The notes beneath the pieces were generated by a model. It saw only the letters and a list, made by a program, of their open reading frames with translations, searched no databases and had not been told where the DNA came from. A program made the position numbers and the translations under genes. Positions 2 to 21,071 of a stretch of 33,129 bases of DNA are shown in pieces. Origin of the DNA: Candidatus Latescibacterota bacterium (lineage in GTDB: Bacteria; Latescibacterota; UBA2968; UBA8231); NCBI GenBank assembly GCA_022820705.1, contig JAJEEZ010000454.1, positions 1-33,129 of the forward strand. Reading direction: 5' to 3'. Position 1 is the stretch's first letter. Each line of letters opens with the position of its first letter.

Positions 2-1798
2 TTTGTGGCCGCCGACGGCACCGAGCGAATCATCCTCAATTACGACTTTACGGACCCGGCGTATGTGGGGCCAGATCTAACCTCTATAGTCGAAGTGGAG
101 TTCGACTATGTGCTAGCCAATGACTTCAAGGTCGAAATGTGGTCTAATCTGCAGACGGGCACGCGCCCGGTGCCGCCGCCGCCGCTGACCAACCAAGTCA
201 TTGAAGAAGCCGAGCCGGTGCTCATCGACATAAGGCGGGCCGCTGGCAATATAAAGGATATATCCAACGCTCAGCGGGTTCTTTTCAACTACGGCTTGCC
301 CTCGGCCAACATGGTCGCCGGATTCACTATCGAAGGCAAGAACGTGTGGGGCTTTGATTTCTACGGCGAGTGGAACAACAACCTGCGCTATTTCCAGTAC
401 CCGAATGCCGCCCTGTTTAACGCCAACGAAGGGCACGAGATCGCTACGGAGAGCGGTCAGGCCACCATCTTCAATCTGTCCAAAGAGACCTACCCGTTTT
501 TTACGTATGGCGAAGCCTATTCGGTGGATGCCGACTATTCGACCTCGGCCTTTGTCTCCCTGCCCCAAGGGGACGTGTACTATGACGATCCCATCCGCTC
601 GGTTTACGAATTTGTCGCCGACAACGACGACCAAGACCGTCGGCCCGACTGGGCCCGGGTAGGCTCGCAGGCCAATGACCGGGAGGTGTTTCCCGGCTGG
701 GACGAGAACCTCGACTTCATTTCGGACTTCAACCAGAACGACAACCGCTCGGTACCCAACTCCATTCCCGACTACGAAGAGCCGTTTTTGCGCTATCACG
801 TCGATCGGCCCGAACTGCTCTTTGGCATTGACCTCAACAACAACGGCTGGATCGACCGCTTTGAGGACGACGAGTTGGCCGACTATCCCTACAAGCCCGA
901 CCGGCGCGGATACAATGTCTTTTTCGGCGTTCATCTCTTACCCGAGGCGCGCTTGCTGGTAGGGCGGCTCGACGAGCGCATGCTCTCGGACGATCGGGAC
1001 AACCAAACCTCGTATGCCATGTTCACTCTCGACAAGGACTACCCTGGTTTGGGACGGGTGCGGGTCTTTGATATGCTCAAGCGGGTCGCGGACACCATTC
1101 CCGATGACCGGCGGGCACCGCTACCCTTCCTCGACGCGCCCACGCCGCCGCTGGTGGCGGATATGCTGTTCTTTCCCGATACCTATATCAACACCGCGTG
1201 GCTGGGGGTGGATTACACCGCCATTGCCAATTTCGAGATAGTCAACAAACTCAAATACGAGCGCTACAGCCAAGCCCAAGAGGAGGCTCGCGACATCGAT
1301 GGCCGGATATTGGCTGGTTCGCCCTCCTTCTTGGGCCTGATCAACAAATTCGAGTACAAGCTGCACCTAGGCCGCTTCCTCCTACAACCTAGGCTCAAAA
1401 GTGAGTACTTCCGTCAAGACGCCTTTGTGCAGACGGAAGAAGACCTAAAGCAATGGACTGGGATTGCCTCGCTTTTGGCCCAAGTGCCCCTACTCAACAG
1501 CAGCGTAATTGACTTCGGGGTGGAGTTGGCCCAGTTCAACGAACTGGTACAGCAGGAAGAGGATATGGTTGAGCAGGGCATCGCCGAAGAGACCGGCGAT
1601 CTGCGCTCTGCGGTTTTTGCGGTGCAGTTAACCAACAACTCAAACTATTTGGGCTACAAGCTGACGATGCAACTCGGCCTGCGTATCGGCCGCACCTTCA
1701 CCGAATTGGTACAGGAGGTAGAGCCCCGGGTCTTTGGCAAGCTCACCAAAGGCCGGACCGAGACCACTAGCTTCATCACCATTTACGCCGGACTGTAA
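2..1798 (+). CDS. Large uncharacterised outer-membrane-type protein, 5'-truncated by the window edge; paralog of 1801..4707
   Basis: The frame is open from base 2 to TAA 1796-1798. It is collinear with the C-terminal two-thirds of the next ORF (VLANDF/Y, YGLPS/TAN, FPGW/YDENxDFISDFNQN, LFGIDLNNNGW, YLGYxLTxQ). The C-terminal half has alternating hydrophobic/polar strand-like segments. Confidence 0.85.
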   Translation, partial: FVAADGTERIILNYDFTDPAYVGPDLTSIVEVEFDYVLANDFKVEMWSNLQTGTRPVPPPPLTNQVIEEAEPVLIDIRRAAGNIKDISNAQRVLFNYGLPSANMVAGFTIEGKNVWGFDFYGEWNNNLRYFQYPNAALFNANEGHEIATESGQATIFNLSKETYPFFTYGEAYSVDADYSTSAFVSLPQGDVYYDDPIRSVYEFVADNDDQDRRPDWARVGSQANDREVFPGWDENLDFISDFNQNDNRSVPNSIPDYEEPFLRYHVDRPELLFGIDLNNNGWIDRFEDDELADYPYKPDRRGYNVFFGVHLLPEARLLVGRLDERMLSDDRDNQTSYAMFTLDKDYPGLGRVRVFDMLKRVADTIPDDRRAPLPFLDAPTPPLVADMLFFPDTYINTAWLGVDYTAIANFEIVNKLKYERYSQAQEEARDIDGRILAGSPSFLGLINKFEYKLHLGRFLLQPRLKSEYFRQDAFVQTEEDLKQWTGIASLLAQVPLLNSSVIDFGVELAQFNELVQQEEDMVEQGIAEETGDLRSAVFAVQLTNNSNYLGYKLTMQLGLRIGRTFTELVQEVEPRVFGKLTKGRTETTSFITIYAGL

Positions 1799-1800
1799 GG

Positions 1801-4707
1801 ATGAGGGCGCGTTACATTATATTGGCTGTCCTAGCCGGGTTGGGTCTGTGGGGAGGAGCCGCTGCCCAAGTCGACTATGGGGGCCGTCTGGGAGATCGGG
1901 TGGGAAACCGCGTCATTTACCACGTGCCCGGCGTGACTACGTATATGGAGGCGCTGGACCCGACTGTGCAGCGCTGGTACATACCGGCCCCCCTGTTTGG
2001 CGAATTTGGCCGCAATCAGTGGGAGTACACCAACTACGCCCGCCAAGCCCACAGGCGTTATATCAACCCCTCGTCAGAGGGGGAACTCTTCTACGATCCC
2101 TTCGGACGCCTCATTACGCGAGGCTGGCTGGTGTACGACTGGCGCCAGACAAAACCACTGATCGCCGAGAGTTCTTCCATCAGGAAAGGTGGCCAGTACA
2201 ACAACTGGTTTAGCCGCTTGGTCATATCCGGGGACTCCAAGGGCCAGTACCGCTATTCTGTGATGGTCGGAGACGAGATATGGACTACCCTAACGCCGAT
2301 GACTTTCCGCAAGGCGGGGTTTAACGGGGTAGTAGCTGACTTCGCCGCAGACCGCTTTCGCGCCACAGGGCTTTTTTCGCGGATTTCGTTCCCGCTCCTT
2401 TCGGGGGGCACCGCGCGCTTCCAGTACGCTACCAACCTCACTGCGGGTCGAGTTGAAGCCGACTTGACTGATTCTTTTACGTTGGGGATGAATTTCGTCA
2501 ACAGCCACAACAACACCGGCAGCAACGAGAGCTTCCAAGGGAATGTGTTCAAGGGTGCCCTGACGGCGGGACAACTGGCTCAGCGGGTTGATCTGCTCTT
2601 GGTGCGGCTGTCGGACGACTCGCCAGAAGATGGCGAGGGCGGTGCCGTCTTGGTTAGCGAGGAGATCGAGATCCGCACTACCCTAAGCCGTCAGGAGATG
2701 ATTCAAGATCAGCTAGTCCACGTGGAGCGGGATACCGTCATCCTCAGCAGCAGTATCGGCTTTAGACCGACCATTGAGGGAGGGAAGATAGACCGGGGGT
2801 TTCTAACGGCCGATGGTGCGGACCAGATCATTTTGCAATATCACTTGGCTCCTAGGGAGACGGCGGGGGAAGAGGGAACCTTGCGTGCGCTCTTCCAGCA
2901 ACACCTAGATCTCACCCTATCTGAAGCTGAAGCCGCGATTAGCGCCATTCGAGACGTGCGCTTTCGCCTCGTGCTAGCCAACGATTACCGCGTCGGGGTC
3001 AGTTCCAATAGGCAGACGGACAAATTTAACGTGCCTCAATTTTTACCCGTGGCGCGGGCCGATGGCAATATCAAGAACCAACTGAATCAGCGCGAGGTCG
3101 TCTTCGACTATGGGCTACCTACGGCCAACCAGATCATCGGTCTGACGGCCGAGGTGCGGGATTTTCACGGCTTCGATTTTTACGGGGAAATAAACCTCAA
3201 TACCCAGTACCGAAAGTACCCCAGCATAGGGCGCGATTCCCACCGTGCGATCAACGGCATTGAGGGGGATCCCCATGAAGTAGGCTGGTTAGTCAATTTG
3301 GCCTTCCGGGAGGGCCCTTGGAGCTTTATGGGTGAGGGGTTTGGCATGGAAGATGGATACCGCACCAGCGTCCTGACGGTAAATCGAGATGGGGTGTCCG
3401 ACTACTCCCCCGAGGCCGTCAACCTGCACTACGAATTTGTGGATGACAACGACGACAACGACCGGCAGCCCGACTGGCTGCGGGTGGGTGAGGGCAGCTT
3501 TGTCCCCACCGAGCGCCGCAGCGAAATCGAGGTGCGCGGCGTGGCCGATCCGGCGATTTTCCCCGGATATGACGAGAATCGCGACTTCATATCGGATTTC
3601 AACCAGAATAGCACCATCGATCGAGTGAATTTTTTTCCCGACTACGACGAGCCTTTTTTGCGCTATGCCGCGGATCGCCCAGAATTTCTCTTCGGCATTG
3701 ATCTCAACAACAATGGGTGGGTAGAGCGCTTTGAGAACGACCAAGAGCCGGACTATCCCTACAAGCGAGACCACTGGGGTTACAATGTCTTCGGCGGGCT
3801 CGAGGTGGCACCGGGTATCCAGCTACGGATGGGTCAGTTGCGGCAAATTCGCTTGGCGAGCGATCGCCGCAACCTGACTAGCTATGGAATGTTCATCTTG
3901 GAGCAGAGTGGGTCGCGGTGGGGTCGTCTGCGGATTTTCGACATGGTTAAGAAGGCCGAAGACGCGATCGCCGACCACTTAGTGCAATGGATCATTCCTA
4001 GAAGCACATTCGGCGCAGCGGCTGAGTCGGCAGGTAGCAATGTGCCGGTATTGGATCCCTTGGCTGCGGAGGATACTTGGATCAACACTTTTTACGCCGA
4101 CTGGGAGTATTCTAGCCCGCGTTTGTGGCGGACTCTGCATCGCTTCAAATGGGAGACTTGGCGGCAGCGCGAATTTTTGCGCGACGCACCGGACGAGGTG
4201 GGCGATTCTGGAGTGGCCTTTGACCCGCTAGGCCCTGAGGGACGCAACGGGCGACGGACCTCGGGCTTTGTCGGACTGATCAATAAGATAGAATACATCT
4301 TTTACTGGCGGTCGCTGAGTTTCAGGCCCAAACTCAAGAGCGAATTCCTGCGCGAGGTGCCCTTTAGCCGAGCATTCGACACGCGGCGCTCTTGGGACGG
4401 CATTTTCTTCTTTGTCGGCAGCGTTCCAGTGTTTGAGACCTCTGAGTTCGAGTTCGGCTTGGAGCAGCGCTCTTTCTTCGACCTCGAAGAAAGGGAAGAC
4501 GAACTGGCAACCGGGCTATTCACTGGGGATTTTCGCGGCTCGGTTTTGGCGTTGCAACTGACCAATACCAGCCAATATCTAGGCTACGAGCTAACCACTC
4601 AGGTGGGCATCCGCCTCGATCGCCGCTCGTTGGAGGTTGTTGACCGGAGCCGAGAGATCGAGACCTCGGGCTTGAGTTTTCTATCGATTATCGCCGGCTT
4701 AAAGTGA
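1801..4707 (+). CDS. Large secreted/outer-membrane-type protein (968 aa) with signal peptide, acidic Ca-binding-like core and beta-strand-rich C-terminus
   Basis: Sec signal MRARYIILAVLAGLGLWGGAAA-Q. Starts 2 nt after the upstream stop. DxNxxG/DxDxD-like motifs. Paralogous to the upstream ORF. The beta-barrel call is inferred from strand periodicity. Confidence 0.85.
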   Translation: MRARYIILAVLAGLGLWGGAAAQVDYGGRLGDRVGNRVIYHVPGVTTYMEALDPTVQRWYIPAPLFGEFGRNQWEYTNYARQAHRRYINPSSEGELFYDPFGRLITRGWLVYDWRQTKPLIAESSSIRKGGQYNNWFSRLVISGDSKGQYRYSVMVGDEIWTTLTPMTFRKAGFNGVVADFAADRFRATGLFSRISFPLLSGGTARFQYATNLTAGRVEADLTDSFTLGMNFVNSHNNTGSNESFQGNVFKGALTAGQLAQRVDLLLVRLSDDSPEDGEGGAVLVSEEIEIRTTLSRQEMIQDQLVHVERDTVILSSSIGFRPTIEGGKIDRGFLTADGADQIILQYHLAPRETAGEEGTLRALFQQHLDLTLSEAEAAISAIRDVRFRLVLANDYRVGVSSNRQTDKFNVPQFLPVARADGNIKNQLNQREVVFDYGLPTANQIIGLTAEVRDFHGFDFYGEINLNTQYRKYPSIGRDSHRAINGIEGDPHEVGWLVNLAFREGPWSFMGEGFGMEDGYRTSVLTVNRDGVSDYSPEAVNLHYEFVDDNDDNDRQPDWLRVGEGSFVPTERRSEIEVRGVADPAIFPGYDENRDFISDFNQNSTIDRVNFFPDYDEPFLRYAADRPEFLFGIDLNNNGWVERFENDQEPDYPYKRDHWGYNVFGGLEVAPGIQLRMGQLRQIRLASDRRNLTSYGMFILEQSGSRWGRLRIFDMVKKAEDAIADHLVQWIIPRSTFGAAAESAGSNVPVLDPLAAEDTWINTFYADWEYSSPRLWRTLHRFKWETWRQREFLRDAPDEVGDSGVAFDPLGPEGRNGRRTSGFVGLINKIEYIFYWRSLSFRPKLKSEFLREVPFSRAFDTRRSWDGIFFFVGSVPVFETSEFEFGLEQRSFFDLEEREDELATGLFTGDFRGSVLALQLTNTSQYLGYELTTQVGIRLDRRSLEVVDRSREIETSGLSFLSIIAGLK

Positions 4708-4714
4708 TTTTTGC

Positions 4715-4743
4715 TTGACCTTATAGGCTATTTTTATTAATTA
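4715..4743 (+). promoter_or_regulatory. Possible sigma70-type promoter for the 4818 gene
   Basis: TTGACC at 4715-4720 followed by an AT-rich tract (TATTAATTA, 4735-4743) in an otherwise GC-rich region. The -10 match is imperfect. Confidence 0.35.
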
Positions 4744-4817
4744 CAGGGCGTAGAACCCGAGTATCGCTTTACCGTACTAGCTTGCAAAACCTCACACCTC
4801 TAAAAAGGAGGGTCGCC

Positions 4818-5738
4818 TTGAAGAAAGCTTTATCCGTCTTATTTACCCCTGTGCTTTTGCTTGGCTTGAGCACCCAGGTACAAGCCCACGATCCGCCCGA
4901 TTTTATCGGCGCGGTGTGGCAATGGCCCGAGACTCACCTGCCGGTCTTAGATGCCGATCTGAGCGAATGGGATATCATTCCCGAGGAATTTTGGATCACC
5001 GAGCAGAGCGTCGTACAGAGCACGGCCCGGCCGTGGATCTACACCGGCGATCTGGACGTGTCCTCGATTTCCTTTCGCTGGATTCCCACTTGGAACGAGG
5101 AAACCAACCGCATCTACTGGGCCTACGAGCGCTTCGACGATAAGTACCAGTTGGGCAACGAGTCGGTCGAAACGACCGTAGATGCCGACCACTCGGGCGG
5201 CTCCTTCTGGGATCTGGAAGGCCAGACCGAAGAGGAAGTAGCACGCCAGCGCGGTCGCCATGCCCAAATCAGCCACTATTGGTTCGACAATGGCCAAGCC
5301 CGTGAGGGAGAGTGGAACTGGTTTTGGATGACCCAAGCTACCTGGTACGACACGCCGCCGTACTCCGATCACGCCTATTGGTTTAGTGGCACGGCTCCCA
5401 ATTCCTTTGAGGAGATGCGCCAACGGGCCGAATGGTGGAGCGTCTATTGGGACGACTTCAACTGGGAAGATCCCGCCGGAAGCGTCCTGCACGACTTCGA
5501 GCAGGACCAGATCATCGGCCTTACAGGGCACGTCTTCGATACTGATGCCGAGCTATCCGACGACTGTAACTGTCATTCGCGCTGGGCCATCAGTCCCAAC
5601 ATCGAATCCTTCGGCGACGCTGATTTCTTGGCCGACTGGGTGCTGCTGGGCGTTGACGATTCCGCCTTTGAAGGTATCGCGCCCACAGCCGTTGAAGACA
5701 ACACTTGGGGCCAGATCAAGGCTTCATTCGGCAAATAA
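4818..5738 (+). CDS. Secreted CBM9/DOMON-like putative carbohydrate-binding protein with a C-terminal 'AVEDNTWGQIKASF' tail
   Basis: Start moved from 4782 to TTG 4818 because AGGAGG lies at 4806-4811 and a signal peptide follows (MKKALSVLFTPVLLLGLSTQVQA-H). The motifs PVLDADLSEW, WNEETNRIYW...DD, ESVETTVDAD and IIGLTGHVFDTD resemble CBM9_1/DOMON-like domains. Confidence 0.75.
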   Translation: MKKALSVLFTPVLLLGLSTQVQAHDPPDFIGAVWQWPETHLPVLDADLSEWDIIPEEFWITEQSVVQSTARPWIYTGDLDVSSISFRWIPTWNEETNRIYWAYERFDDKYQLGNESVETTVDADHSGGSFWDLEGQTEEEVARQRGRHAQISHYWFDNGQAREGEWNWFWMTQATWYDTPPYSDHAYWFSGTAPNSFEEMRQRAEWWSVYWDDFNWEDPAGSVLHDFEQDQIIGLTGHVFDTDAELSDDCNCHSRWAISPNIESFGDADFLADWVLLGVDDSAFEGIAPTAVEDNTWGQIKASFGK

Positions 5739-5765
5739 GCGGTTTTTGCGCCGCATAAGCGCCTC

Positions 5766-5807
5766 ATAAAGAAGGGGGGGAATTCTATTCCCTCCCTTCT
5801 TTTATTT
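5766..5807 (+). terminator. Intrinsic (rho-independent) terminator
   Basis: Stem AAAGAAGGGGGGGAAT (5768-5783), loop TCT, ATTCCCTCCCTTCTTT (5787-5802) with one G-U pair, then TATTT. It lies about 30 nt after the 5738 stop. Confidence 0.8.
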
Positions 5808-5843
5808 ACTATCTGGATCATCTACCGGAGCAGGAGGTAGATA

Positions 5844-7766
5844 ATGAGAGGGAAATTGCTGCGACTTTTGTCGGCTGTGCTAGTAGGGAGCTTATGCTAT
5901 GAGCTAGCTGAAGTCGAGGCGCTCACCGTGTATCGCATTGGTGGGGAGGAGCTACCGCCGCCGGAAGTGGATGGAGACTTTGAATTTATCCAGTTGTCTT
6001 GGGCTGATGTGGACGAAAAACAGCTCGGCAGGATAGACCTCTTGGAGGTTGCAACCCATTCTATTGAGCCTCAGCGTCTAGACCCCACCGTCAATCTGAC
6101 GCCGCTGATTCGGGAGCGGGGCGGCGGCATACGCTCGAACAATTCCTACGGTTGGCAATCGGAAGCCCTCTTAGACTTCTTGATGGACGGCGATCTGACT
6201 ACTGCTTATTTGGGCAGTGGCCGCAGCCAGTCGGCCGACTGCTCGCCGTGCAAGAAGGGCATCTGGTTTGAGTTGAACGGACTGTTTCCCATCCGACGCA
6301 TCAAAATTTCTACCACGGAGCGCTTTGCCCACCAGCGCTTCATCGAGGTGTTCGAGATAGGAACCAACGACGGCGATTCGCGCAAAAAGGGAACCCGAGA
6401 AGGGCAATACCATTGGCGCGGGGCCTTTCTCGATTACGATGTCGTGTTCTCAGTCGCCAATAATTTGGAGCCCTTTCTCGATTTGGAACTGCCCGATCGA
6501 CCCATTGCCGAAATTCTTTTTAAGGCACCTGTTGGCAATTGGGAGATCGCCGAATTTGAGATCTTCGGGGATGGCTTTGCCTCGCAGGCCAGCTATGTAT
6601 CCAATGTCATTGATTTGGGCATGGCTTCTAGCCTAGGTGAATTGACTTGGTCGGGCAGCCGAGATCAAGGCGCAACGGTCAACCTGAGCATGCGCAGCGG
6701 CGATGACACAGATCCCAATTTCTATTGGCGCTTCACGTTCAGAGGCGACGAGCGCTCCCGCTTTGCAACTAGCGGCGAACCGCTCACTCTGGACCGCTAT
6801 AACAGACTGGAGGCAGGCGAGAAAGCCGGGATCAGCCCGGACAACGAAAGTTGGGAGTTCTGGACGCCGCCGCTCGATTTCGATCGGGGGCATTCCGAAT
6901 TAGTGGGTTTACGGCCTCGGCGCTACTTGCAGTTCAAGGCGGACTTTCTCTCGGAGCGGGCGCTTGCGGCCGGACGCATGGAGTACTTGCAGTTTAGCGT
7001 CTCCCAACCTCCGGTGGCCAGCCAAGTGCTGGCCGAGATCGTGCCGCACCAAGTCGAGGTGGGCGAGGTCGTCCAATTCATCTACAAAATCCTGCCCAAC
7101 TTAGAGCAGAATGATCTCGGCTTCGACAGCATTGAGATCGACACCCCCATAGAAGTTACGAGCATTGACGCAGTGTACATCGGCGGCGAAGAACAGGATT
7201 TTACCATCGCGGAAAGAGACGCGAAGAGCTTTGTGGTACAAGTACCGCGAATCGATCTCAACCGCACGGGCGAGTTGGTCGAGGTCGAATTTCAGGCTGA
7301 GGTTTTTCAGGTAGGCACGGTATTTTCGGGCCGGGTCTTCGACAGTCAACTCCCCCATGAGGTGCGCCAGCGCATCACGGCGGGGAACGCCGATGATCTG
7401 GCCGAGAGCAATACCCTGAGCGTCGGGTTGAGTACGGTGGCCAATCCAGCGGTCAAGGCATTGTGGCTTTCGCCGCCGCTCTTCACCCCCAATGGCGATG
7501 GCGTCAACGATGTGCTACAGATTGAATACGATCTGGTAAACCTCAGCGGCGATGTGCCCGTGACGATTGATCTCTACGATTTGGCGGGAGTGAAGCGATG
7601 CGAGGTGGCCCATAGTACAGCGGCTAGTGGTCGGTTCTCGGCTACTTGGGAGGGCGTGGATGATGCGGGCAACCTGCTACCCCCCGGACTCTATCTCTTG
7701 CGTCTCGAAGTGGATTCAGACAAGGCCAAGGATGTCGAAGTCGCAGTCGTGCGGCTAGTTTATTAA
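5844..7766 (+). CDS. Secreted multidomain beta-sandwich protein with a discoidin/F5-8-like region and a C-terminal FlgD-Ig / CHU_C-type domain
   Basis: SD AGGAGG upstream; signal peptide ending ...AEVEA; MDGDLTTAY...IRRIKI...EFEIFG (discoidin-like); C-terminal FTPNGDGVNDVLQIEY...WEGVDDAGNLLPPGLYLLRL. Confidence 0.8.
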   Translation: MRGKLLRLLSAVLVGSLCYELAEVEALTVYRIGGEELPPPEVDGDFEFIQLSWADVDEKQLGRIDLLEVATHSIEPQRLDPTVNLTPLIRERGGGIRSNNSYGWQSEALLDFLMDGDLTTAYLGSGRSQSADCSPCKKGIWFELNGLFPIRRIKISTTERFAHQRFIEVFEIGTNDGDSRKKGTREGQYHWRGAFLDYDVVFSVANNLEPFLDLELPDRPIAEILFKAPVGNWEIAEFEIFGDGFASQASYVSNVIDLGMASSLGELTWSGSRDQGATVNLSMRSGDDTDPNFYWRFTFRGDERSRFATSGEPLTLDRYNRLEAGEKAGISPDNESWEFWTPPLDFDRGHSELVGLRPRRYLQFKADFLSERALAAGRMEYLQFSVSQPPVASQVLAEIVPHQVEVGEVVQFIYKILPNLEQNDLGFDSIEIDTPIEVTSIDAVYIGGEEQDFTIAERDAKSFVVQVPRIDLNRTGELVEVEFQAEVFQVGTVFSGRVFDSQLPHEVRQRITAGNADDLAESNTLSVGLSTVANPAVKALWLSPPLFTPNGDGVNDVLQIEYDLVNLSGDVPVTIDLYDLAGVKRCEVAHSTAASGRFSATWEGVDDAGNLLPPGLYLLRLEVDSDKAKDVEVAVVRLVY

Positions 7767-7791
7767 CCCTACAAACTATGGTTTTAGATTT

Positions 7792-9462
7792 ATGAAGAAT
7801 GGAATAGTGCGCTCAGGCGTTTGCATCCTAGGGCTCTGGCTTCCCTGTGTAGCCCAAGACGATCTAGTGCTTGCCCAGATAGCAGACCAACCCATCGCCG
7901 TCAGCGAATTCAGAGCCTATGCCGCGAATATTCCCAAAGCCTACCAGATGGGTAAGACCGGTGTTGAGGCCGACCGGATTCTGCTCAATGGACTGATCGA
8001 CAAGAAACTATTGCTCGCCGAGGCGGAACGAGCTGGCATTGGCGACGAACGGGAATTTAAGCACAAGCTCGAGCAGTTCGCCCAGGACCAGACCGTCAGG
8101 CTCTACAGAAGTATCGAGATTGATCAGCGGATTTCCATTGTCGAAGAGGAGTTGATGCAGCACTACCGGGATTCGCACCGGGATCGCGCATTGCGCTATG
8201 CGGGTATTTTGGTAGCGACCCGAGACGAGGCACTCGACCTGCTCGACGAACTAGAGGCTGGCGCTGATTTCAGTCAACTGGCCAGAGAGCACTCGCTTTA
8301 CGAGGCGACGCGGGACCAGGGTGGGGATGTAAAAAAGTACTATACGATTGACGATACGGCTCCACCGCTGCGGAGCATTTTTTCCATGCAGGTCGGCGAG
8401 GTTTCCGAGCCGCTGCCGTGGGGCGGCGACCCGCAGCGCTACGTGATCGCCAAGGTTTTAGACGACGCGCCAGTCACCTTTCGGGAGGTAGCCCGATTCG
8501 TCAGGGAGGAGGTCTTCGCCCAAAAGCGCCTACAGCGCGCCCAAGCCCTGCGCGATTCGCTCAGCGACCAGTACGCGCCGCAAATTCACTACGACAAGAT
8601 AGACCACGTGCTGATGCGCCTAGTGCTGTCGCCTGAAGAACGGGTGGCGTCGCCCGAAGAGGGCGAAGAGATATTGTGCCGCTACAACGGCGGCGCGATC
8701 ACCATTGACGATCTCGTGCTGAGCATACCGGAGAAAGCAGAGGGGTATGAGCGCGATTACGAGCGAACCTGGATCGTCGATTATCTACAGGATTCGGCCG
8801 TCCCCAATCGGATGTTTCTGGCAGAGGCACGCAACAAGGGACTGGATAAAAATCAGATAATCCTCGCGGCGGTGGACAATAAGCGCAGCGATATGCTGGT
8901 GAGCGCGTTGAGAAAGCGAGAGGTTGAGGAGCGGCTGCCGCCGATCACCGATGCAGAGGCACGCGCCTTCTACGATCAAAATCCCGAGAAGTTTCAGGGC
9001 TTTGAGAACATTGTCACGACCGAGATTCTGGTGGCCTTTAAGGAGCAGGCTCACAGCCTGAAAGAGGAGTTGGTGGGGGGTGCTGACGCGGTGCAGTTGG
9101 CTAGGGACTTTACGATTCGCAAGGAGCGGGCGCACCACGAGGGGCAGTTGGTCTTGAGTCCGATTGGGCTGTACCAAGATATCTACAAAGTAGCCAAAGA
9201 GCTGCAGGTGGGGGATGTAGGGGGACCGGTAAAGGTGAGAGGAGGGTATTCGGTATTCAAGGTGGAGGAAAAGCAACCGGCCCCCAAGAAGCCCTACCAT
9301 GTTTTTTCGGAGCGGCGTGCGCGGGCTTATGTGAAAATTGCACGTTCGCAAAAGGCGTACGTGCAGTATATGCGCGGGTTACACAAGAAGTACTCGGTCG
9401 AAATTTTCGAGGATAACTTGTTGAAAATTCAAGAGGAGGAGGAAGACGTGCAGGGGGGATGA
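7792..9462 (+). CDS. Exported peptidyl-prolyl cis-trans isomerase / SurA-PrsA-like chaperone with two parvulin (PpiC) domains
   Basis: Signal peptide. SurA-N-like helices (LIDKKLLLAEA; RMFLAEARNKGLD) occur twice, as do parvulin motifs (ILV...GADFSQLAREHS...GGDV...GEVSEP; ILV...GADAVQLARDFT...GDVGGPVKVRGGYSVFKV). Confidence 0.85.
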   Translation: MKNGIVRSGVCILGLWLPCVAQDDLVLAQIADQPIAVSEFRAYAANIPKAYQMGKTGVEADRILLNGLIDKKLLLAEAERAGIGDEREFKHKLEQFAQDQTVRLYRSIEIDQRISIVEEELMQHYRDSHRDRALRYAGILVATRDEALDLLDELEAGADFSQLAREHSLYEATRDQGGDVKKYYTIDDTAPPLRSIFSMQVGEVSEPLPWGGDPQRYVIAKVLDDAPVTFREVARFVREEVFAQKRLQRAQALRDSLSDQYAPQIHYDKIDHVLMRLVLSPEERVASPEEGEEILCRYNGGAITIDDLVLSIPEKAEGYERDYERTWIVDYLQDSAVPNRMFLAEARNKGLDKNQIILAAVDNKRSDMLVSALRKREVEERLPPITDAEARAFYDQNPEKFQGFENIVTTEILVAFKEQAHSLKEELVGGADAVQLARDFTIRKERAHHEGQLVLSPIGLYQDIYKVAKELQVGDVGGPVKVRGGYSVFKVEEKQPAPKKPYHVFSERRARAYVKIARSQKAYVQYMRGLHKKYSVEIFEDNLLKIQEEEEDVQGG

Positions 9463-12292: not shown

Positions 12293-12393
12293 ATAGTAGA
12301 TACAAGACGAGCCGCATCTCGAATCGTTCAAGTTATCGAGGATTGCTATATGACGGCTACACTGCCTTCGTCTTTGGTTTCGCAGCAAAAGCG

Positions 12394-14037
12394 ATGCACG
12401 CGCTGATAAGCGGGGTCTTCATCCTCCTGTGTACGGCTCTTCTGTCAGCCCAACCCCTGCCTACTCAGTTTACCGACCAAGCCGCCGCACTCGGCATCAC
12501 GGCACGGAACGTCTCGGGCAGCACCCAAGAATACATCGTTGAAACTGCTGTGGGTGGTTCGGCCTTTTTCGACTACGATAGCGACGGCGATGTCGATTTA
12601 TACGTGGCCAACGGCTCCCGCTTTGAAGGCTTTCCAACAGGCCAGGAGCCGACCAATCACCTCTACCGCAACCACGGGGATCGCTTTGTCGATGTCACTA
12701 CCGCCGCTGGGGTGGGCGACACGAGTTGGTCTATGGGGTGTGCTGCCGCGGACTACGACAACGATGGCGATCTGGACTTGTATGTGACCAATTTCGGCCG
12801 CAATACCTTCTACCAGAATCGGGGCGATGGCACGTTTGAGGATATTACTGAAAAAGCGGGTGTCGGAGACGAAAGATGGGGCGTCGGCTGCGCTTTCGGC
12901 GATGCCGATTTAGACGGCGATGTCGATCTGTACGTGGCCAATTATATCGACTTTTCGCGGGACTATACTTCTACCGTCCCCTGCGTATGGAAGACCGTCG
13001 ATATTTTTTGCGGTCCGCGCGGCTTGCTCCCCGCTGGCGATGTATTCTACCGCAACAATGGTGACGGCACCTTGGCTGACCGCAGCGAGGAAGCCGGTAT
13101 TGCTGGCGCAAAGTATTATGGGTACGGGGTCGTCTTCGGCGATTTCGACCGCAATGGTTGGCCCGATATCTTCGTCGCCAACGATTCGGCCCCTAACAAT
13201 CTGTACCAGAACCAAGGCGACGGCACCTTTGTCGATGAGGGCCTCAGCGCGGGTGTGGCCTATAGCGGCGACGGCACCGAACAGGGGTGCATGGGTGCCG
13301 CGGTCGGCGATTACGACAACGATGGGTACTTCGATATCTTTGTCACCAATTTTGAAGGCGAGTACAATACCCTGTACAAAAATCAGCGCGGTGGATTTTT
13401 CCTCGACGTATCCTTCGTATCCCAAATTGCGGCGCGGGGCACTCCCGAGGTGGGATGGGGCACGGGGTTTTTCGACTTTGACAACGACGGCGATCAAGAT
13501 CTCTTTGCGGCCAATGGCCACACCTATCCCCAAGCCGACTTGCCCCACACCAACAGCAGCTATGCCGAGCCTAATTTCCTCTATCAAAACTTGGGCGATG
13601 GCACCTTTGCCGAAGTCTCCGAACGCGCCGGGCCGGGCTTTGCCTTAGTCGAGGTGAGCCGAGGTGCCAGCTTTGCCGACTACGACCGCGACGGCGATAT
13701 CGATATCTTCGTCTTAAATCTCAACAGCACGCCCAATCTCCTGCGCAACGATGGCGGCAACGAGGGCAACTACTTGCAAATCGCCACTGTAGGCACCCGC
13801 AGCAACCGCGATGGAATCGGCACCCGCATCGAAATAAGCGCCCAAGGTAAACGCCAGGTCGCCGAGGTGCGCAGTGGCACCAGTTTTCTCTCTCACAGCG
13901 ATCTCAAGGTACACTTTGGCTTGGGCGCTGCCTCCAGCGTCGAAAGCGTCGTCCTCCACTGGCCTAGTGGCACAGTTCAGACGCTGCGCGATGTGGCAGT
14001 CAATCAGGTGTTGACCGTGCGCGAGCCGGCTGATTAG
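12394..14037 (+). CDS. CRTAC1-family protein (FG-GAP/VCBS beta-propeller + ASPIC/UnbV), secreted
   Basis: ATG 12394 gives signal peptide MHALISGVFILLCTALLSA-Q (the ORF track starts at TTG 12343). Seven DxDxDGDxDL repeats. C-terminal SNRDGIG...SFLSHSDLKVHFGLG...WPSG. Confidence 0.9.
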   Translation: MHALISGVFILLCTALLSAQPLPTQFTDQAAALGITARNVSGSTQEYIVETAVGGSAFFDYDSDGDVDLYVANGSRFEGFPTGQEPTNHLYRNHGDRFVDVTTAAGVGDTSWSMGCAAADYDNDGDLDLYVTNFGRNTFYQNRGDGTFEDITEKAGVGDERWGVGCAFGDADLDGDVDLYVANYIDFSRDYTSTVPCVWKTVDIFCGPRGLLPAGDVFYRNNGDGTLADRSEEAGIAGAKYYGYGVVFGDFDRNGWPDIFVANDSAPNNLYQNQGDGTFVDEGLSAGVAYSGDGTEQGCMGAAVGDYDNDGYFDIFVTNFEGEYNTLYKNQRGGFFLDVSFVSQIAARGTPEVGWGTGFFDFDNDGDQDLFAANGHTYPQADLPHTNSSYAEPNFLYQNLGDGTFAEVSERAGPGFALVEVSRGASFADYDRDGDIDIFVLNLNSTPNLLRNDGGNEGNYLQIATVGTRSNRDGIGTRIEISAQGKRQVAEVRSGTSFLSHSDLKVHFGLGAASSVESVVLHWPSGTVQTLRDVAVNQVLTVREPAD

Positions 14038-14039
14038 GG

Positions 14040-14437
14040 AGAGACGTTACGCAGCCTTCTATCTAAGTAAGGGTTCAACTATGGCTATTTTCTATCGCAT
14101 AAGGCATTTTGCGGCAAAGGGGCTACTAACCTATTTTTAGCAAGTACACGTATTATTACGGAGAGTTGCCATGACTAATACCCCCCTGACCCCTGAAGAA
14201 CGTCTATCCAGACTTGAAGGAGTCTATGACCATCTAGCGACGAAGGCCGATATTGCCAACCTCAAAGCCGAGTTGAACAAGGATTTTACGGACCAAATAA
14301 AGGAAGTCAGAAAGAGTTTGAACCAATTGCAGGGGGGTATAGCGGTATTGGGTTTTGTATTAATTATTCTCCAGCTATGGATCAAATTTACCGGCTAAAC
14401 TACGAACGATCCGTGCCCAAGCCTGCGTAATAGCAGT
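14040..14437. mobile_element. Possible small cassette / MITE-like unit bounded by imperfect inverted repeats and carrying the 14171..14398 gene
   Basis: TTACGCAGCCTT (14047-14058) and AAGCCTGCGTAA (14419-14430) are an 11/12 inverted match. The interior is visibly AT-richer than the flanks. No transposase and no clear target-site duplication. Confidence 0.35.
14171..14398 (+). CDS. Small coiled-coil protein with a C-terminal TM helix (DUF1640/CCDC90-like 'ATKADI' type)
   Basis: GGAG SD at 14161-14164; LATKADIANLKAEL heptads; hydrophobic C-terminus GIAVLGFVLIILQLWIKF. Confidence 0.75.
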   Translation: MTNTPLTPEERLSRLEGVYDHLATKADIANLKAELNKDFTDQIKEVRKSLNQLQGGIAVLGFVLIILQLWIKFTG

Positions 14438-14440
14438 GAG

Positions 14441-16390
14441 CTACCATCGCGTCACCACGGCATCCCACCCCGCAATCAGATCTACCGCCATCCACAAACC
14501 CGCGCTGCTGACTTGGCCCAATACCATGCCGAGGAAGAAGGGCCGCAGGCGGCGAAAGAGTGTGATTCCGCCGTACCGCAATACGATCCATTTTGCCAGC
14601 CAGCCCAGCGCCATACTCGACCAAGCGAAAAACATCACGTAGGTCCCCCCCACCGGCAGGCCGATTGGGTGGATCGGCCACCACAAGAAGCGGTGGCGCA
14701 GGTACAACAACAGAAACATCAGCCCGGCCCCCAAGCCGGTGAATGCGCCACGCGGCCCCCAGAAATTCCACGCGGCCACCGGATTGAGTTGATTCGCCGC
14801 CATATCGTTAAACGTCCAGCGGCCCATGATGCTGTAAAACCAGTAGTGGAGATTGACCCCGCCGTAGGTATAGGCGATGGAAAGCACCGTCCAAGCTGAG
14901 GTGACCAAGCTCACGGCGATTGCTATGAGCAAAGCCCAAAACAGCGGCGGCCGGCGCGTCCCGACGACCTCGGCTAGTCGGGTGCTGTTGGAGGCTGCCG
15001 CCATCATGGTCGTGCGGATATCCCCGGCCCAGCCATTGGCAAACCCGAGTACCATCAATCCTCGCGGCCCAATAGGTGCCGTGCCCAGCGCATTGATCAC
15101 AAAGGCTGGCGGCGTCATCTGCGTCCGGCCATACCCCATGCCCCCTTCGGCGACGATCCGCGTCAAACCGACGAATACCACAAAGGCGATAACGAGCAAC
15201 AGCAGCGCCGCTCCCACGGGTAATCCCGCGCTTTTCAACCATAAGAGCGCGTAAAGGAAGGCCCCGATCAGGATCCACACGGCTTTGCGGTAGGAGAGTA
15301 TCTGCCCTGAGCCCTCTTTCGGGTCCTTTTTTTCCCACGCTCCGACGACCACTTCTTTGAGGTGCCGACGGGCGGTCCACAAACTGGCTGCCACGAGGGC
15401 AATCAACGCCCCAATGGCCTGCTGGGCGGTGGCGATGGACCCTTCGGTGTGCATCAGCCGGATCTCTGGAATGCTGAACCCGAGGGTGTTGAAAAGGCCC
15501 AACTGGAAGAAGTTGAGCAAGTAGAAAAACCACAGACTAAAGGAGATCTCCAGACTCAGGAAGTACGTCAGGCCAAGGACGATAAACCACAAGTTGAACA
15601 AGACGCCCCGCATGTCGTGGAAGATGGTCAATTGGGTTGACAACTCGATGGGGGAAATAAAGGGATAGTACTTGTGCAGGGCATTGATTCCCAAGAGGAC
15701 GAAGGGAATGGCAAATCCCAACCACATCAGTGGTTCTTTTAGAAAGGGGTTGACCGCCGAAGGTCTGTCGTCCTCGTGGATCATGTACAGCGGCAACTGG
15801 ACGAGAGGGAAGATCAAGCGCTCATTGCGTGCCCATTGTTCGTGGAGCAAAGCCGACAGGGCGATCATCATCAAATAGAGCGCCCCCAAAAAAGAAGCCC
15901 ATGCCAACAGAGGCACCAACCATGCTTCCCAAGGGATAGCCACCTCTTGGGGCAAGCCTTCGTAGAAGTACTTGACCGCCATCGGGTCTTGCGGTGCCAG
16001 CCACGGCTGGATATAGGGGTGGAGGAGTTCGGCCCAGTTGTTTTCGGGCGTGGCATAGTAATAGACTCCGGCCAAAAAGGGGACCAATTGCGCCGTGACT
16101 CCGGTGGAGGGAATCGCCGAAGCCGCGACCATCATGGCGTAGATTACCACTAGTTCTTGGGTCGATAAGCTCCATTTGCGCCCGAGCCATTTGAGCGGAA
16201 TGTTGACCAATAGCAGGAGGAAGAGGAGGAAAATCGCGCTGAGGGCGATGAAATCACCGGTCCAATCAAGGGTCCCCATCACCAGAAGTCCATAGGGAAA
16301 AACCGTGTTGATCACCACGGCCATCAAAGCGCCGACGAGCAAGGCCCGATACGGCATCCATCTTTTATCGCTGGCGACGAATTGACTCAT
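14441..16390 (-). CDS. DUF6785/DUF6784-like polytopic membrane protein (putative transporter)
   Basis: 649 aa with many TM helices. Motifs ELVVIYAM, YYATPENNW, QWARNERLIFPL, TRIVAEGG, FLWWPIHPIG, KWIVLRYGG and RPFFLG match my recollection of this family. Confidence 0.75.
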   Translation of the reverse strand: MSQFVASDKRWMPYRALLVGALMAVVINTVFPYGLLVMGTLDWTGDFIALSAIFLLFLLLLVNIPLKWLGRKWSLSTQELVVIYAMMVAASAIPSTGVTAQLVPFLAGVYYYATPENNWAELLHPYIQPWLAPQDPMAVKYFYEGLPQEVAIPWEAWLVPLLAWASFLGALYLMMIALSALLHEQWARNERLIFPLVQLPLYMIHEDDRPSAVNPFLKEPLMWLGFAIPFVLLGINALHKYYPFISPIELSTQLTIFHDMRGVLFNLWFIVLGLTYFLSLEISFSLWFFYLLNFFQLGLFNTLGFSIPEIRLMHTEGSIATAQQAIGALIALVAASLWTARRHLKEVVVGAWEKKDPKEGSGQILSYRKAVWILIGAFLYALLWLKSAGLPVGAALLLLVIAFVVFVGLTRIVAEGGMGYGRTQMTPPAFVINALGTAPIGPRGLMVLGFANGWAGDIRTTMMAAASNSTRLAEVVGTRRPPLFWALLIAIAVSLVTSAWTVLSIAYTYGGVNLHYWFYSIMGRWTFNDMAANQLNPVAAWNFWGPRGAFTGLGAGLMFLLLYLRHRFLWWPIHPIGLPVGGTYVMFFAWSSMALGWLAKWIVLRYGGITLFRRLRPFFLGMVLGQVSSAGLWMAVDLIAGWDAVVTRW

Positions 16391-16395
16391 AAACC

Positions 16396-18930
16396 CTATT
16401 CGTCTTGGGGCGGTCGCCGGATAAGTTGCTCGGCTAGTAGATCGAGGAAATAGGCCGACGATTTGTCCTCGGGATTCGCCTGGAGTGCGCGCTGGTAGGC
16501 TCTTGCCGCTGCCCGGTCGCGGTTTTGCAGCCGCATGATATCCCCCTCTAGCGCGTGCTCGCCAGCCCTAAAATAGACCTCCATTTTTTCTCGTACTGTA
16601 GCAGAGGGTGCCGTGAGCAGTGACAGGGCCGAGGTGCGGTATGGAGTCAAATGCTCCAACACCTCCCACGAGCCACTGCTGTAGCCCTTCGGGCTGACAA
16701 AGCTGATGTAGGGATGGTCGTCGGTGTTGAGCGGCCCTTCCCCCACATAGCGCCGCAGGGCGACCTCGTCCATCACCAGGGTGTTCAAGAGCGCAAATGC
16801 GTTCCCCATGTCAATGTTCTCTAAGCTGCGATGCACTCGCGGCGGTGTCATCTTCTCGTTGAGCAGTTCCCAATCAATCGCCTGCGGCTGCATGGTCCCC
16901 ACCATGATTGAATAGTTGTTCGAGCGCCACAAGGTAGCGTGGGGAAAGACGTGCTGAAAGGTGCGCACGATGGTCTTGTAGTCGTCTGGCGGCAGGCCGT
17001 GAAAGGGCAGCCACTGGGCCATGATCCCGTCGGTGCTCAGGTGTGCCCGGCACAACTCGTAAAATTCCTTGGTGTAGAGCACCCAGCTATCGGCGCTCGT
17101 TGGATGGGTGGCGTCTCCGGTGATGATTTGGTAAGTGTCGCGGGTGGAGAGGAGAAAATTGCGGCCGTCGTCGATAACTAATTCGATATTCCACGCCGCC
17201 GGATTCTCAAGTACGTGGTGATTGAATTCGCCAAAGTGCAACCGGGCCGCGTCTATCACCTCCGGCACCAACTCAACGCAAGTAATGCGTCGCGGCTCGT
17301 ACTGGGCTGCGCCCCCCAAGGCGATCCCGCCGCCCAAGGAGACGACCAACACCTCTTGCGGATCGGGATGCAGGAGCAGGGGCAAATGGCCCAGGAGGCG
17401 AAAAATTTGCAGCGAGCTGTAGTCGGTCGGCACCTGCCCGCCCCCATTGAGCGCCATTTTGCGGAAACCATCGGTTTGTTGTTCGACGGTGATGACGCCT
17501 TCGGCACCCTCTTGGTAAAACACCAGTTCTCGGTTGACGGCCGCTGGTTCCGCAATGCGCCGCAGCACATCCGAGGGTACTAGGACTAGCAGGAGTGCCA
17601 AACCCACCGCCCCGCTCCAGACCAGCCGCTTGCGTTGCTGGCTAACTAAGGCGAGCGTCAGGCCAACCAAGCCATTCAACGCTGCCAGCACCTTGACGCT
17701 CCACTCGGTCCCCAGCAGCGGAATCAGCACAAACCCCGTCACAAAGGCTCCCCCGACAGCACCCAAGCTGTTGACAGCACCGATGTCCCCTATACCGCGC
17801 CCCAGACGCGTTAGTTGTCGCGTGTAGATTTGGCCGACCAGCGGAAAGATAACGCCCATCGCCACGGTCGGCAGCAACATGATGGCGACGGCCGTAAAAA
17901 ACACGCCGGTTCGCGACATCCACCACGAATCCGCCTGCTGGATCGGCTCCACGAGAATGGATAAATGGGCAAAGGCCAACACGGACAGGGCACCACACGC
18001 GCCGATCAAAAACTGGATCCCGACAAAAATCTCAAGCAAATCTGTCCGCCGCGCGAGCAGCCGACTGCCCAACCATCCCCCCAAGGACAGGCCGCTCAAA
18101 AAGGCCACCAAGACAATGCTGAACTCGTAGTGTGAATTAAAGGAGAAACTCACCATCAAGAGCCGCATCCACGCCACTTCGTAGCCTAGGGCGGCAAAAC
18201 CGGAGATGGCAAAGCCGACCAGCACGCCCCACAGAACGAGGTCAGAGTGAGTGGTCTCTTTTGCTGCCGCCCCTTCGTCGACGCTTACGGCCCGTTGCCC
18301 CCCCCACAGCCAAGCCGCGCCTGCCACCAAGAAATTCACCACAGCGATGGCTTGCGTCGTCCCCTGCAAACCCAGCCCTTCCATCAGCCCGAAGGTCGCT
18401 GCCAACACCCCGACGACCGCGCCCAGCGTGTTGATCGCATAGAGTTGTCCGACCCGACCGCCTAACCTGCCCAGCCGCCGCACTGCAAACTTGGCCATGA
18501 CTGGTAGGGTACCCCCCATCAGTGCTGTGGGGATCAGGAGCAAGGCAAAGCAAAGGCCGAAGCGGGCGAGGGAAAAGAGATAGAAGTTCCCCTGTAAACC
18601 CACTAGAGCACCGTAGGCATTGCCCAAATTCGCACTAATACTGGGAAAGAAAAGGGCGAAAAGACCGATGCCGGCTTCTAGCGCGGCAAAAATCCGCAGG
18701 GGGTGTTTGCAGCGGTCGATGTACCGCCCCAAAACGTAGCTACCCAAGGCTAGGCCAGCCATGAAGGCGCTGAGCACGGTGCTAGTAGCCAGCAGGGTGG
18801 TGCCGAAGACCACGGTCAGCATCCGCGCCCACACGACCTGATAGACTAAGCTGCTGACCCCAGAAAAAAAGAATAGGACCAAGAGCGCCTTTTGTTCAGA
18901 CTGCTCTAGGTCCTGGCCGTGTTCTTCCAC
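16396..18930 (-). CDS. Fused MFS-like membrane domain / spermidine-synthase-fold (class I SAM) domain with a C-terminal TPR
   Basis: FFFSGVSSLVYQVVWARML, FMAGLALG and LYAINTLGAVVG membrane repeats (twice); VLVVSLGGG, VELVPEVI, DDGRNFL, LYTKEFY, GIMAQW, LNTDDHP; terminal YQRALQANP. GTG start. Confidence 0.9.
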   Translation of the reverse strand: MEEHGQDLEQSEQKALLVLFFFSGVSSLVYQVVWARMLTVVFGTTLLATSTVLSAFMAGLALGSYVLGRYIDRCKHPLRIFAALEAGIGLFALFFPSISANLGNAYGALVGLQGNFYLFSLARFGLCFALLLIPTALMGGTLPVMAKFAVRRLGRLGGRVGQLYAINTLGAVVGVLAATFGLMEGLGLQGTTQAIAVVNFLVAGAAWLWGGQRAVSVDEGAAAKETTHSDLVLWGVLVGFAISGFAALGYEVAWMRLLMVSFSFNSHYEFSIVLVAFLSGLSLGGWLGSRLLARRTDLLEIFVGIQFLIGACGALSVLAFAHLSILVEPIQQADSWWMSRTGVFFTAVAIMLLPTVAMGVIFPLVGQIYTRQLTRLGRGIGDIGAVNSLGAVGGAFVTGFVLIPLLGTEWSVKVLAALNGLVGLTLALVSQQRKRLVWSGAVGLALLLVLVPSDVLRRIAEPAAVNRELVFYQEGAEGVITVEQQTDGFRKMALNGGGQVPTDYSSLQIFRLLGHLPLLLHPDPQEVLVVSLGGGIALGGAAQYEPRRITCVELVPEVIDAARLHFGEFNHHVLENPAAWNIELVIDDGRNFLLSTRDTYQIITGDATHPTSADSWVLYTKEFYELCRAHLSTDGIMAQWLPFHGLPPDDYKTIVRTFQHVFPHATLWRSNNYSIMVGTMQPQAIDWELLNEKMTPPRVHRSLENIDMGNAFALLNTLVMDEVALRRYVGEGPLNTDDHPYISFVSPKGYSSGSWEVLEHLTPYRTSALSLLTAPSATVREKMEVYFRAGEHALEGDIMRLQNRDRAAARAYQRALQANPEDKSSAYFLDLLAEQLIRRPPQDE

Positions 18931-18950
18931 GCTGAATGCTCTTTTTAAGA

Positions 18951-18964
18951 ACTGACGTTACGCA
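18951..18964 (+). repeat. Dispersed intergenic motif ACTGACGTTACGCA
   Basis: GACGTTACGCA is identical at 14043-14053 and 18954-18964. The reverse complement of 14424-14437 is ACTGCTATTACGCA. Confidence 0.55.
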
Positions 18965-19026
18965 TCGGGGGAGGGGTCCAAAACGCAGCGCGAACCGCTT
19001 CACCATGCCGTTAGGCGCGATATCCA

Positions 19027-21010: not shown

Positions 21011-21071
21011 GGTCTATACTTTTCGACGTATTTTGGCGTTTATGAGAGTGATTTTGCGTTGAGATGGGCGT

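Follow-up and report, generated by a model that had tools for sequence, protein, structure and literature searches.

A lysine-containing C-terminal tail shared by unrelated exported proteins of Latescibacterota and a second phylum: a candidate sorting or anchoring tag

The window analyzed here is the whole of a 33,129-nucleotide stretch of DNA from a Candidatus Latescibacterota bacterium (GenBank assembly GCA_022820705.1, contig JAJEEZ010000454.1). One of its genes, P0001, encodes a predicted exported protein that ends in a short tail built around the motif TWGQIK, and the same tail ends 43 open reading frames (ORFs) in the host genome. From comparison of sequences we propose, with moderate confidence, that this tail serves as a portable tag for sorting or anchoring and would be read after export by a trans-acting factor of the cell envelope. 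The tail keeps a strict C-terminal position, is portable between protein bodies, accompanies export signals, requires its Lys residue, and has a patchy spread among lineages; the genes that lie beside it in the window fail as its general readers.

The motif clusters at C termini and requires lysine

The host genome (G000; 5.0 Mb in 659 contigs, 77.8% complete) was scanned as 27,422 six-frame ORFs of at least 80 amino acids (aa). The pattern [ST]W[GA]x[ILVM]K occurred 44 times, and in 43 of the 44 occurrences it lay no more than 15 residues from the stop codon, confirming the C-terminal tail described in the initial annotation of this DNA. The Gly-only form, [ST]WG.[ILVM]K, accounted for 38 occurrences, with 37 no more than 15 residues and all 38 no more than 20 residues from the stop codon. 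Given that the last 21 positions hold only 12.4% of ORF residues, the C-terminal clustering of the motif is far above chance. The Gly-to-Ala variant occurred six times, always at the C terminus. The Lys-to-Arg form occurred 28 times but was C-terminal in only 3 cases, which is the chance level. The Gly position tolerates Ala, whereas the Lys position does not tolerate Arg.

The C-terminal end of P0001 is ...PTAVEDNTWGQIKASFGK-stop or, written out further, ...SAFEGIAPTAVEDNTWGQIKASFGK-stop. The span previously assigned to the tail, 5688..5738, is exactly AVEDNTWGQIKASFGK plus the stop codon. The tail itself stands as it was read there, but Phe is not its last residue; GK follows the Phe. No hydrophobic stretch follows the motif in P0001, in keeping with the earlier view that the tail lacks a membrane-spanning segment. 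The same annotation had called the tail too short for a C-terminal domain of a type IX secretion system (T9SS), and this also holds: the tail of P0001 has 17 residues and matches no Pfam or NCBIfam model.

In an alignment of 15 CBM9-like paralogues that are 17 to 43% identical to P0001, the invariant columns include T302, V304, E305, W309, G310, and K313. The consensus over 146 distinct tails is T-[AS]-V-E-x-x-[ST]-W-G-x-[IVL]-K-[AS]-x-[FYLM], in which the TxVE part of the logo is biased because most of the tails were collected with a pattern demanding TxVE. Between 2 and 13 residues, mostly polar, follow the Lys, and 105 of the 146 tails have 4 or 5. Codon use inside the motif varies freely, indicating that it is the peptide, not the DNA, that is under selection. 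The Lys preference is also seen over several genomes: in five tail-rich genomes (G221, G207, G079, G095, and G124) the Lys pattern gave 255 matches (68, 45, 56, 52, and 34 per genome), and the same pattern with Arg or an AGY Ser codon in place of Lys gave 1. Since Arg does not replace Lys, we infer either chemistry at the Lys or a very exact contact. The Lys would then be the point of cleavage or covalent linkage, at the residue or next to it, with the residues behind it as a leaving group, or it would be a tightly fitted contact for whatever binds the tail.

The same residues bear on a simpler explanation, that SWGxIKxxF forms a short amphipathic helix or strand lying in the membrane surface and that the tail is a self-sufficient anchor needing no reader. 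C-terminal amphipathic membrane helices are found in PBP5/6, FtsA, and MinD, and in the logo the W, I/V, and F/Y of the tail fall at positions i, i+3, and i+7 and are flanked by basic residues. The tail also sits where Cache sensor domains normally meet a membrane helix, and an anchor of this kind would explain why no reader gene tracks the tail. Generic helices, however, tolerate Arg for Lys and drift, whereas here Lys outnumbers Arg or Ser by 255 to 1, and both phyla keep T, V, E, W, and K unchanged. Eight or nine residues are also short for stable binding, and the conserved TAVE part would have no role. We consider a self-sufficient anchor quite improbable.

The tail is carried by unrelated exported proteins

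For classification of the carriers, 38 ORFs from a scan with a 60-aa threshold were stripped of their tails and clustered by BLASTP (E ≤ 1e-5). They formed 16 clusters, comprising 16 CBM9-like proteins, 6 Cache proteins, 3 lipocalin-like proteins, and 13 singletons; among the singletons, C24 and C34 were judged spurious and C510 a fragment. The tail is therefore present on at least 13 unrelated protein bodies and is not limited to one protein family, as the initial annotation had anticipated. Pfam names for further bodies are FGE-sulfatase, LTXXQ, DUF362, dioxygenase-like, and PD40, and five bodies have no family in Pfam. P0001 itself matched no Pfam or NCBIfam model, even at E ≤ 10; its body is CBM9-like in that its paralogues weakly match PF06452 (CBM9_1) and its nearest Atlas clusters carry CBM9_1. 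The Cache tail protein was used in a homologue search, which returned close orthologues only, and 110 of 120 orthologues keep the tail. The DUF362 tail protein had no match in five tail-poor genomes at E ≤ 1e-10, a test that we take as uninformative. The non-CBM9 tail genes are surrounded by ordinary metabolic genes, among which no partner recurs.

Enrichment among proteins with signal peptides had been suggested as a check on the tail, and it was found: signal-peptide-like starts are present on 30 of 34 tail ORFs of at least 150 aa and on 1374 of 3969 other ORFs (Fisher P = 1.7e-10). The signal-peptide calls come from a crude heuristic of our own, and the gene calls are likewise rough heuristics. 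Two carriers, the DUF362 and dioxygenase-like proteins, have twin-arginine starts, read by eye. The presence of both Sec-like and Tat-like starts among the carriers indicates that the tail works on proteins exported unfolded and on proteins exported folded.

Two further observations concern the CBM9-like carriers. In 12 of 15 of them a His directly follows the predicted signal peptide cut (A|H), and in the other 3 the residue is Gln, with the cut placed by eye; the mature N-terminal His of P0001 and its paralogues could be a metal or haem ligand. One CBM9-like tail gene, on contig C590, lies in two adjacent frames, a 189-aa front and a 137-aa back with the tail, as a result of either a frameshift or an assembly error.

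The tail is present or absent by lineage

One genome per species was searched with a strict 36-base pattern for T[AS]VExx[ST]WGx[IVM]K, which matched at least 121 stretches. Among the matches listed, 119 of 121 have a stop codon 2 to 13 codons after the Lys, and the other 2 run off the locus. By record title, most of the matches listed belong to Latescibacterota, and the remainder to Eisenbacteria/Eiseniibacteriota, Gemmatimonadota, Handelsmanbacteria, and one Planctomycetota. The initial annotation had named Latescibacterota among the lineages with such tails, and records with that title do carry it. Titles are nonetheless a poor taxonomic guide: five records titled as Gemmatimonad*, Handelsmanbacteria, or Gemmatimonas phototrophica (L034, L035, L036, L050, and L128) coincide in contig numbers, coordinates, and scores with genomes of the host's own family (G081, G077, G082, G100, and G101).

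We therefore describe the distribution by the search tool's own grouping, in which the host's phylum comprises families f1 to f14 and f1 is the family of the host. The tail pattern occurs in 58 of 121 genomes of this phylum and in 43 of 101 genomes of a second phylum (that of G124, with a record titled Eiseniibacteriota), where single genomes have up to 68 matches; genomes within each set are related, and the counts are not independent. The second-phylum tallies include G139, which is flagged as unpublished, and become 42 of 100 without it. In the host's phylum the strict pattern is present in 37 of 40 genomes of f1, 5 of 6 of f9, and every genome of f5, f6, f7, and f11 to f14 (1 to 3 genomes per family), in 2 of 13 genomes of f10 and 1 of 5 of f8, and in none of the 29, 13, and 2 genomes of f2, f3, and f4. 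A reversed-pattern control almost always gave 0. With a looser pattern ([ST]WGxxK, five codons, and then a stop), f2, f3, f4, and f8 remained at the control level. The strict pattern missed the two f1 genomes of genus g5, whose tail is a variant, ...NVTATSWGVLKLSFRP-stop.

Family f10 is of a different kind. In each of three genomes examined there is exactly one tail protein, of approximately 211 aa, ending in ...T[ST]WGE[IV]K[SN]Q[FY]KD. Its gene is always just downstream of a gene for a giant Dockerin_1 and FlgD_ig protein (2401 aa in G006) and always beside a gene for an S8 peptidase that carries a T9SS domain. The tail protein has no Pfam match even at E ≤ 10, leaving an apparent likeness to cohesin unsupported, and neither it nor its S8 neighbor has an orthologue in the host genome. 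This is possibly a single-substrate locus.

The distribution also bears on a tether to the cell wall. In Braun's lipoprotein a C-terminal Lys is linked to peptidoglycan by L,D-transpeptidases of the YkuD type, and the Lys of the tail might be cross-linked in the same manner. Such a tether would fit the failure of Arg to replace Lys and the many carriers from families that are typically periplasmic. However, YkuD (PF03734) is present in all of the tail-less f2 (29 of 29) and f3 (13 of 13) genomes, and no match to it was obtained in G003 and G024, which bear the tail and are both 99% complete, in the 6 genomes of f9, or in the 3 of f13. Moreover, the Lys of the tail is not the last residue. We give this explanation next to no credence, although a transpeptidase of an unrelated family might yet revive it.

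The tail alternates with T9SS domains, but T9SS genes do not predict it

The host genome has the T9SS core genes SprA/Sov, PorV, and PorU: a SprA_N match of 62.5 bits, one Peptidase_C25 match of 260.8 bits, and two PorV-like matches of 60.3 and 35.7 bits. The tail has neither the fold nor the length of a T9SS domain. A hidden Markov model of the host genome's own T9SS domain marked 135 of its 3813 rough genes and none of the 25 tail genes in that gene set. We rejected the idea that the tail is a truncated T9SS domain, as the junction before those 135 domains contains no WGxIK-like motif.

Tail and T9SS domain do occur in the same slot. Of 26 CBM9-like ORFs in the host genome, 20 end in the tail (16 with WG and 4 with WA or AW); the other six comprise one with a T9SS domain, one with a PKD-like end, one with something else, two that run off contigs, and the front half of the split gene. 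DUF362 proteins of the host likewise come with a Tat start and the tail, with a FlgD_ig domain, or with neither. This alternation is one reason to consider that the tail might be a minimal T9SS signal, standing in for the usual 70- to 100-residue Ig-like C-terminal domain; the PorV shuttle, the SprA pore, and a PorU-type C25 sortase would read it, and the C25 enzyme would cut at the Lys and attach the protein to the surface. C25 is a suitable family in that it includes a Lys-specific clan-CD peptidase, gingipain K. C25 was also found in all 10 distinct additional tail-bearing genomes checked (15 handles, five of them apparently repeats), in 116 of 121 genomes of the host's phylum, and in 101 of 101 of the second. 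GspK (PF03934), a marker of type II secretion, reached the cutoff in none of five tail-bearing genomes (G000, G083, G079, G221, and G207), although the model is short and unspecific and also responds in 10 of 14 control genomes. In the second phylum the number of C25 copies rises with the number of tails (rho = 0.57; median of 7 copies versus 3; uncorrected for kinship and genome size).

Against a minimal T9SS signal, tail-less f2, f3, and f4 have C25 and PorV as well (PorV is in 116 of 121 genomes of the host's phylum, tail-less families included). The presence of T9SS thus does not predict the tail, and C25 and PorV are so nearly universal that they are uninformative about its reader. The trend in C25 copy number in the second phylum has exceptions, in that three tail-rich genomes have no more than 3 copies and two tail-less genomes have at least 10. 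In the host's own genus, G083, G085, and G117 have a single C25 match but 25 to 31 tail matches each. Tat export is not known for T9SS cargo, yet two carriers have Tat starts. The lack of a WGxIK-like motif before the T9SS domains of the host also argues against a shared signal. Finally, PMC11285876 calls the Ig-like fold of the T9SS C-terminal domain essential. We regard a minimal T9SS signal as possible but doubtful.

Independently of the tail, gene numbers for these families vary widely: PorV-like genes number 5 to 14 in most f2 and f3 genomes (a few have 2 to 4), which have neither the tail nor the P0002 family described below, and 1 to 3 in f1 genomes, and C25 genes range from 2 to 3 up to at least 17 to 29 in the second phylum and G227. 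Those C25 paralogues of G221 and G207 that were looked at have T9SS-type domains, not tails, at their ends; just downstream of one lies a small tail gene, no more than chance would give.

The alternation is relevant to one more alternative, in which the tail would be no sorting tag but a signal for maturation or turnover, such as the site of a C-terminal processing protease or a chaperone handle used during folding. A strictly terminal motif with a short variable stub would suit such a role, and the envelope destination of the carriers is itself putative. However, a maturation signal common to at least 13 unrelated folds is not known to us, the tail alternates with surface-attachment domains, and its lineage-wide presence and absence behaves like that of a system. 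A role in maturation or turnover seems to us decidedly improbable.

Neighboring genes are not general readers of the tail

P0001 lies directly downstream of two tandem paralogous genes for exported proteins, P0003 and P0002 (Table 1). These putative barrel-like neighbors had been put forward as candidate receptors or translocons for the tail. The P0002 family has about 45 tblastn hits in the host genome, no Pfam relative, and no hit against solved structures (profile search, E ≤ 1). Several observations favor a link. The nearest named Atlas cluster to P0002 is a TonB-dependent-receptor-like barrel (DUF6029), although its score of 0.89 makes it a lead only; the CBM9-like tail genes are syntenic with the P0002 family, with a P0002-like hit on at least 9 of 16 CBM9-tail contigs; and in the host's phylum all tail-bearing families also have the P0002 family.

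Table 1. Coordinates of features in the window and, where a locus handle is given, at other loci
Feature	Position	Strand	Remarks
P0003	2..1798	+	Paralogue of P0002; cut by the start of the window
P0002	1801..4707	+	968-aa exported protein of unnamed family; adjoins P0001; proposed tail reader
P0001	4782..5738	+	318-aa ORF; TTG start as listed, true start unsettled
Predicted Sec signal peptide of P0001	4782..4886	+	...LLLGLSTQVQA, then HD; cut site by eye
Site of mature N-terminal His of P0001	4884..4892		Possible ligand residue
Tail, T302-K318	5685..5735	+	TAVEDNTWGQIKASFGK
Tail core TWGQIK, T308-K313	5703..5720	+	W, G, and K invariant
Terminator-like hairpin	5768..5802	+	16 pairs, then T run; 30 bases 3′ of the P0001 stop codon
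P0004	5844..7766	+	Neighbor with T9SS-type C-terminal domain (CHU_C / FlgD_ig)
Repeated locus type	2..9462		One copy in the window
Remaining gene group	12343..32501		FG-GAP/UnbV_ASPIC and other proteins
Split CBM9-like tail gene	G000:C590:7897-8877 (L027:7341-8318)		Two adjacent frames
Single-tail locus of f10	L185:2092-12443		G006
Single-tail locus of f10	L186
Single-tail locus of f10	L188

The distribution of the P0002 family contradicts this proposal. The family is in 72 of 121 genomes of the host's phylum (40 of 40 in f1, 13 of 13 in f10, 1 of 5 in f8, and 0 of 29, 0 of 13, and 0 of 2 in f2, f3, and f4) but, at E ≤ 1e-8, in none of the 101 genomes of the second phylum, 43 of which have the tail. 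Since the family is missing where the tail is common, the tail exists without it. Conversely, all f10 genomes have the family, yet each of the three examined has a single tail gene of another kind, and in G006 the five CBM9-like orthologues that were read have a PKD domain, and no tail, at their ends. In the host genome, the tail genes of other families lie among unrelated metabolic genes and not beside members of the P0002 family. In addition, about 45 paralogous hits per genome look like substrate-specific modules and not like a shared translocon. It is very unlikely that P0003 and P0002 are the receptor or translocon for the tail.

Two other proposals drawn from the neighborhood were tried and not retained. 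The body family of P0004 was rejected as a reader, being found in 1 of 101 second-phylum genomes with a weak match. For transport of tail proteins together with neighboring T9SS cargo, the non-CBM9 tail genes are too few (nine) to decide: a T9SS-domain gene is the next gene in 1 of 9 and within two genes in 2 of 9, against backgrounds of 4.3% and 7.3%. The corresponding figures for the CBM9 loci are 5 of 16 and 8 of 16, but these loci are copies of one syntenic family. Adjacency to T9SS cargo appears to be a trait of the CBM9 loci alone.

The left part of the window is one copy of a much-repeated locus type, which contains two tandem exported proteins of 900 to 970 aa of the unnamed family, a CBM9-like tail protein, a T9SS-domain protein, and a SurA-like double PPIase with about 25 paralogues. 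It looks like a polysaccharide-utilization-like surface module. The group of genes farther right encodes four FG-GAP/UnbV_ASPIC proteins, one of them with pentapeptide repeats, a DUF6785/DUF6784 protein, an 844-aa fusion of major facilitator superfamily transporter and spermidine synthase, a 663-aa TPR protein, and a small Tsx-like barrel.

Discussion

A terminal, portable, selected peptide with a Lys, a stub behind it, and a lineage-wide pattern of presence and absence points to a sorting or attachment signal. In the mechanism that we favor, the tag would consist of a linker, T-[AS]-V-E-x-x-[ST]-W-[GA]-x-[IVL]-K, and 2 to 13 (mostly 4 to 5) variable residues. Carriers would be exported by Sec or Tat; a trans-acting envelope factor, conserved between at least two phyla, would then read the tail as a short linear peptide; and the carrier would be kept at, or attached to, a defined site of the envelope. 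The destination would most likely be the outer membrane or the cell surface and not the free periplasm, since in paralogues the slot of the tail is filled by a T9SS surface-attachment domain.

Several points weigh against this proposal. Every family tested as a reader is either universal (C25 and PorV) or mismatched in distribution (P0002, P0004, and YkuD). The signal peptide heuristic is permissive, with a 35% background. The LTXXQ, Cache, PD40, and Tat-exported redox-type carriers are of kinds that we take to be typically periplasmic, and these are a poor fit to the surface. Lastly, the sorting or anchoring role, the compartment, the cleavage, and the linkage are all things that we infer.

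In a more specific version, the tail would be the substrate of a Lys-directed system of covalent attachment that could do without a membrane helix and without a folded signal domain. A transpeptidase of the envelope would cut at the invariant Lys, release the stub of 2 to 13 residues, and link Sec- and Tat-exported proteins to an acceptor in the outer membrane or at the surface. A PorU-like C25 enzyme would be the obvious candidate transpeptidase, since strict Lys specificity exists in that family. We think the covalent version unlikely as it stands; if true, it would constitute a third kind of bacterial surface-sorting chemistry beside the sortase and T9SS types.

The tail resembles several known C-terminal signals, and differs from each. 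Like the T9SS domains (Por_Secre_tail, PF18962/TIGR04183; CHU_C, PF13585; FlgD_ig-like, PF13860), it sits at the extreme C terminus, is portable, occurs in T9SS-bearing lineages, and in the host genome occupies the same slot in CBM9-like and DUF362 paralogues. However, it has 14 to 25 residues where they are folded Ig-like domains of 70 to 100 residues, it matches none of the models and has no motif in common with the 135 T9SS domains of the host, and it is absent from T9SS-bearing sister families. With LPXTG/sortase, PEP-CTERM/exosortase, GlyGly-CTERM/rhombosortase, and MYXO-CTERM/myxosortase it shares a short C-terminal motif, occurrence on unrelated exported proteins, and a patchy spread. 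Those signals are tripartite, whereas the tail has no hydrophobic helix or basic cluster and, in the 146 distinct tails, only the short and mostly polar stub after the Lys. The initial annotation was thus right to set it apart from the LPXTG and PEP-CTERM types. Braun's lipoprotein also has an essential Lys near the C terminus of an exported protein, but the Lys of the tail is 2 to 13 residues from the end and the spread of YkuD is mismatched. Nor does the tail follow the beta-signal of outer membrane beta-barrels: only 12 of 146 tails stop three residues after the Lys, at the F/Y position, and the tail bodies belong to soluble-domain families.

Encapsulin cargo-loading peptides consist of a flexible linker followed by hydrophobic-Gly-x-hydrophobic-Lys/Arg near the end. 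Like the tail, they are short C-terminal peptides with Gly and Lys, preceded by a linker and found on unrelated cargo, and they illustrate how a protein can be addressed to a protein shell or scaffold by a few residues. However, their cargoes are cytoplasmic and lack signal peptides, and the peptides accept Arg, whereas the tail proteins are exported, Arg is not accepted in the tail, and no gene for a shell or scaffold is known in this case.

We found no description of the tail in the literature, in a full-text search that did not reach subscription journals and in which the motif itself is not text-searchable. A term search of the Haft 2023 preprint on new sorting signals returned none of these phyla and no "lysine." New here are the family-level map of presence and absence, the rule that Lys is not replaced by Arg, the tolerance of Ala for Gly, the single-substrate loci of f10, and the rejection of the neighboring families and YkuD as readers.

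The clean split between tail-bearing and tail-less families offers a direct route to the machine by phylogenetic profiling, and many of these genomes are near-complete or in a single contig. The Lys-not-Arg rule provides a sharp and cheap test by mutation and mass spectrometry. In practice, annotators can also use the tail to flag envelope proteins of these phyla. If it is an address tag, it marks a part of the exported proteome of large, uncultured, and environmentally common phyla: the host genome has 43 tail ORFs, and a single genome of the second phylum reaches 68 pattern matches. A machine for sorting or attachment that is as yet unnamed would then be implied as well.

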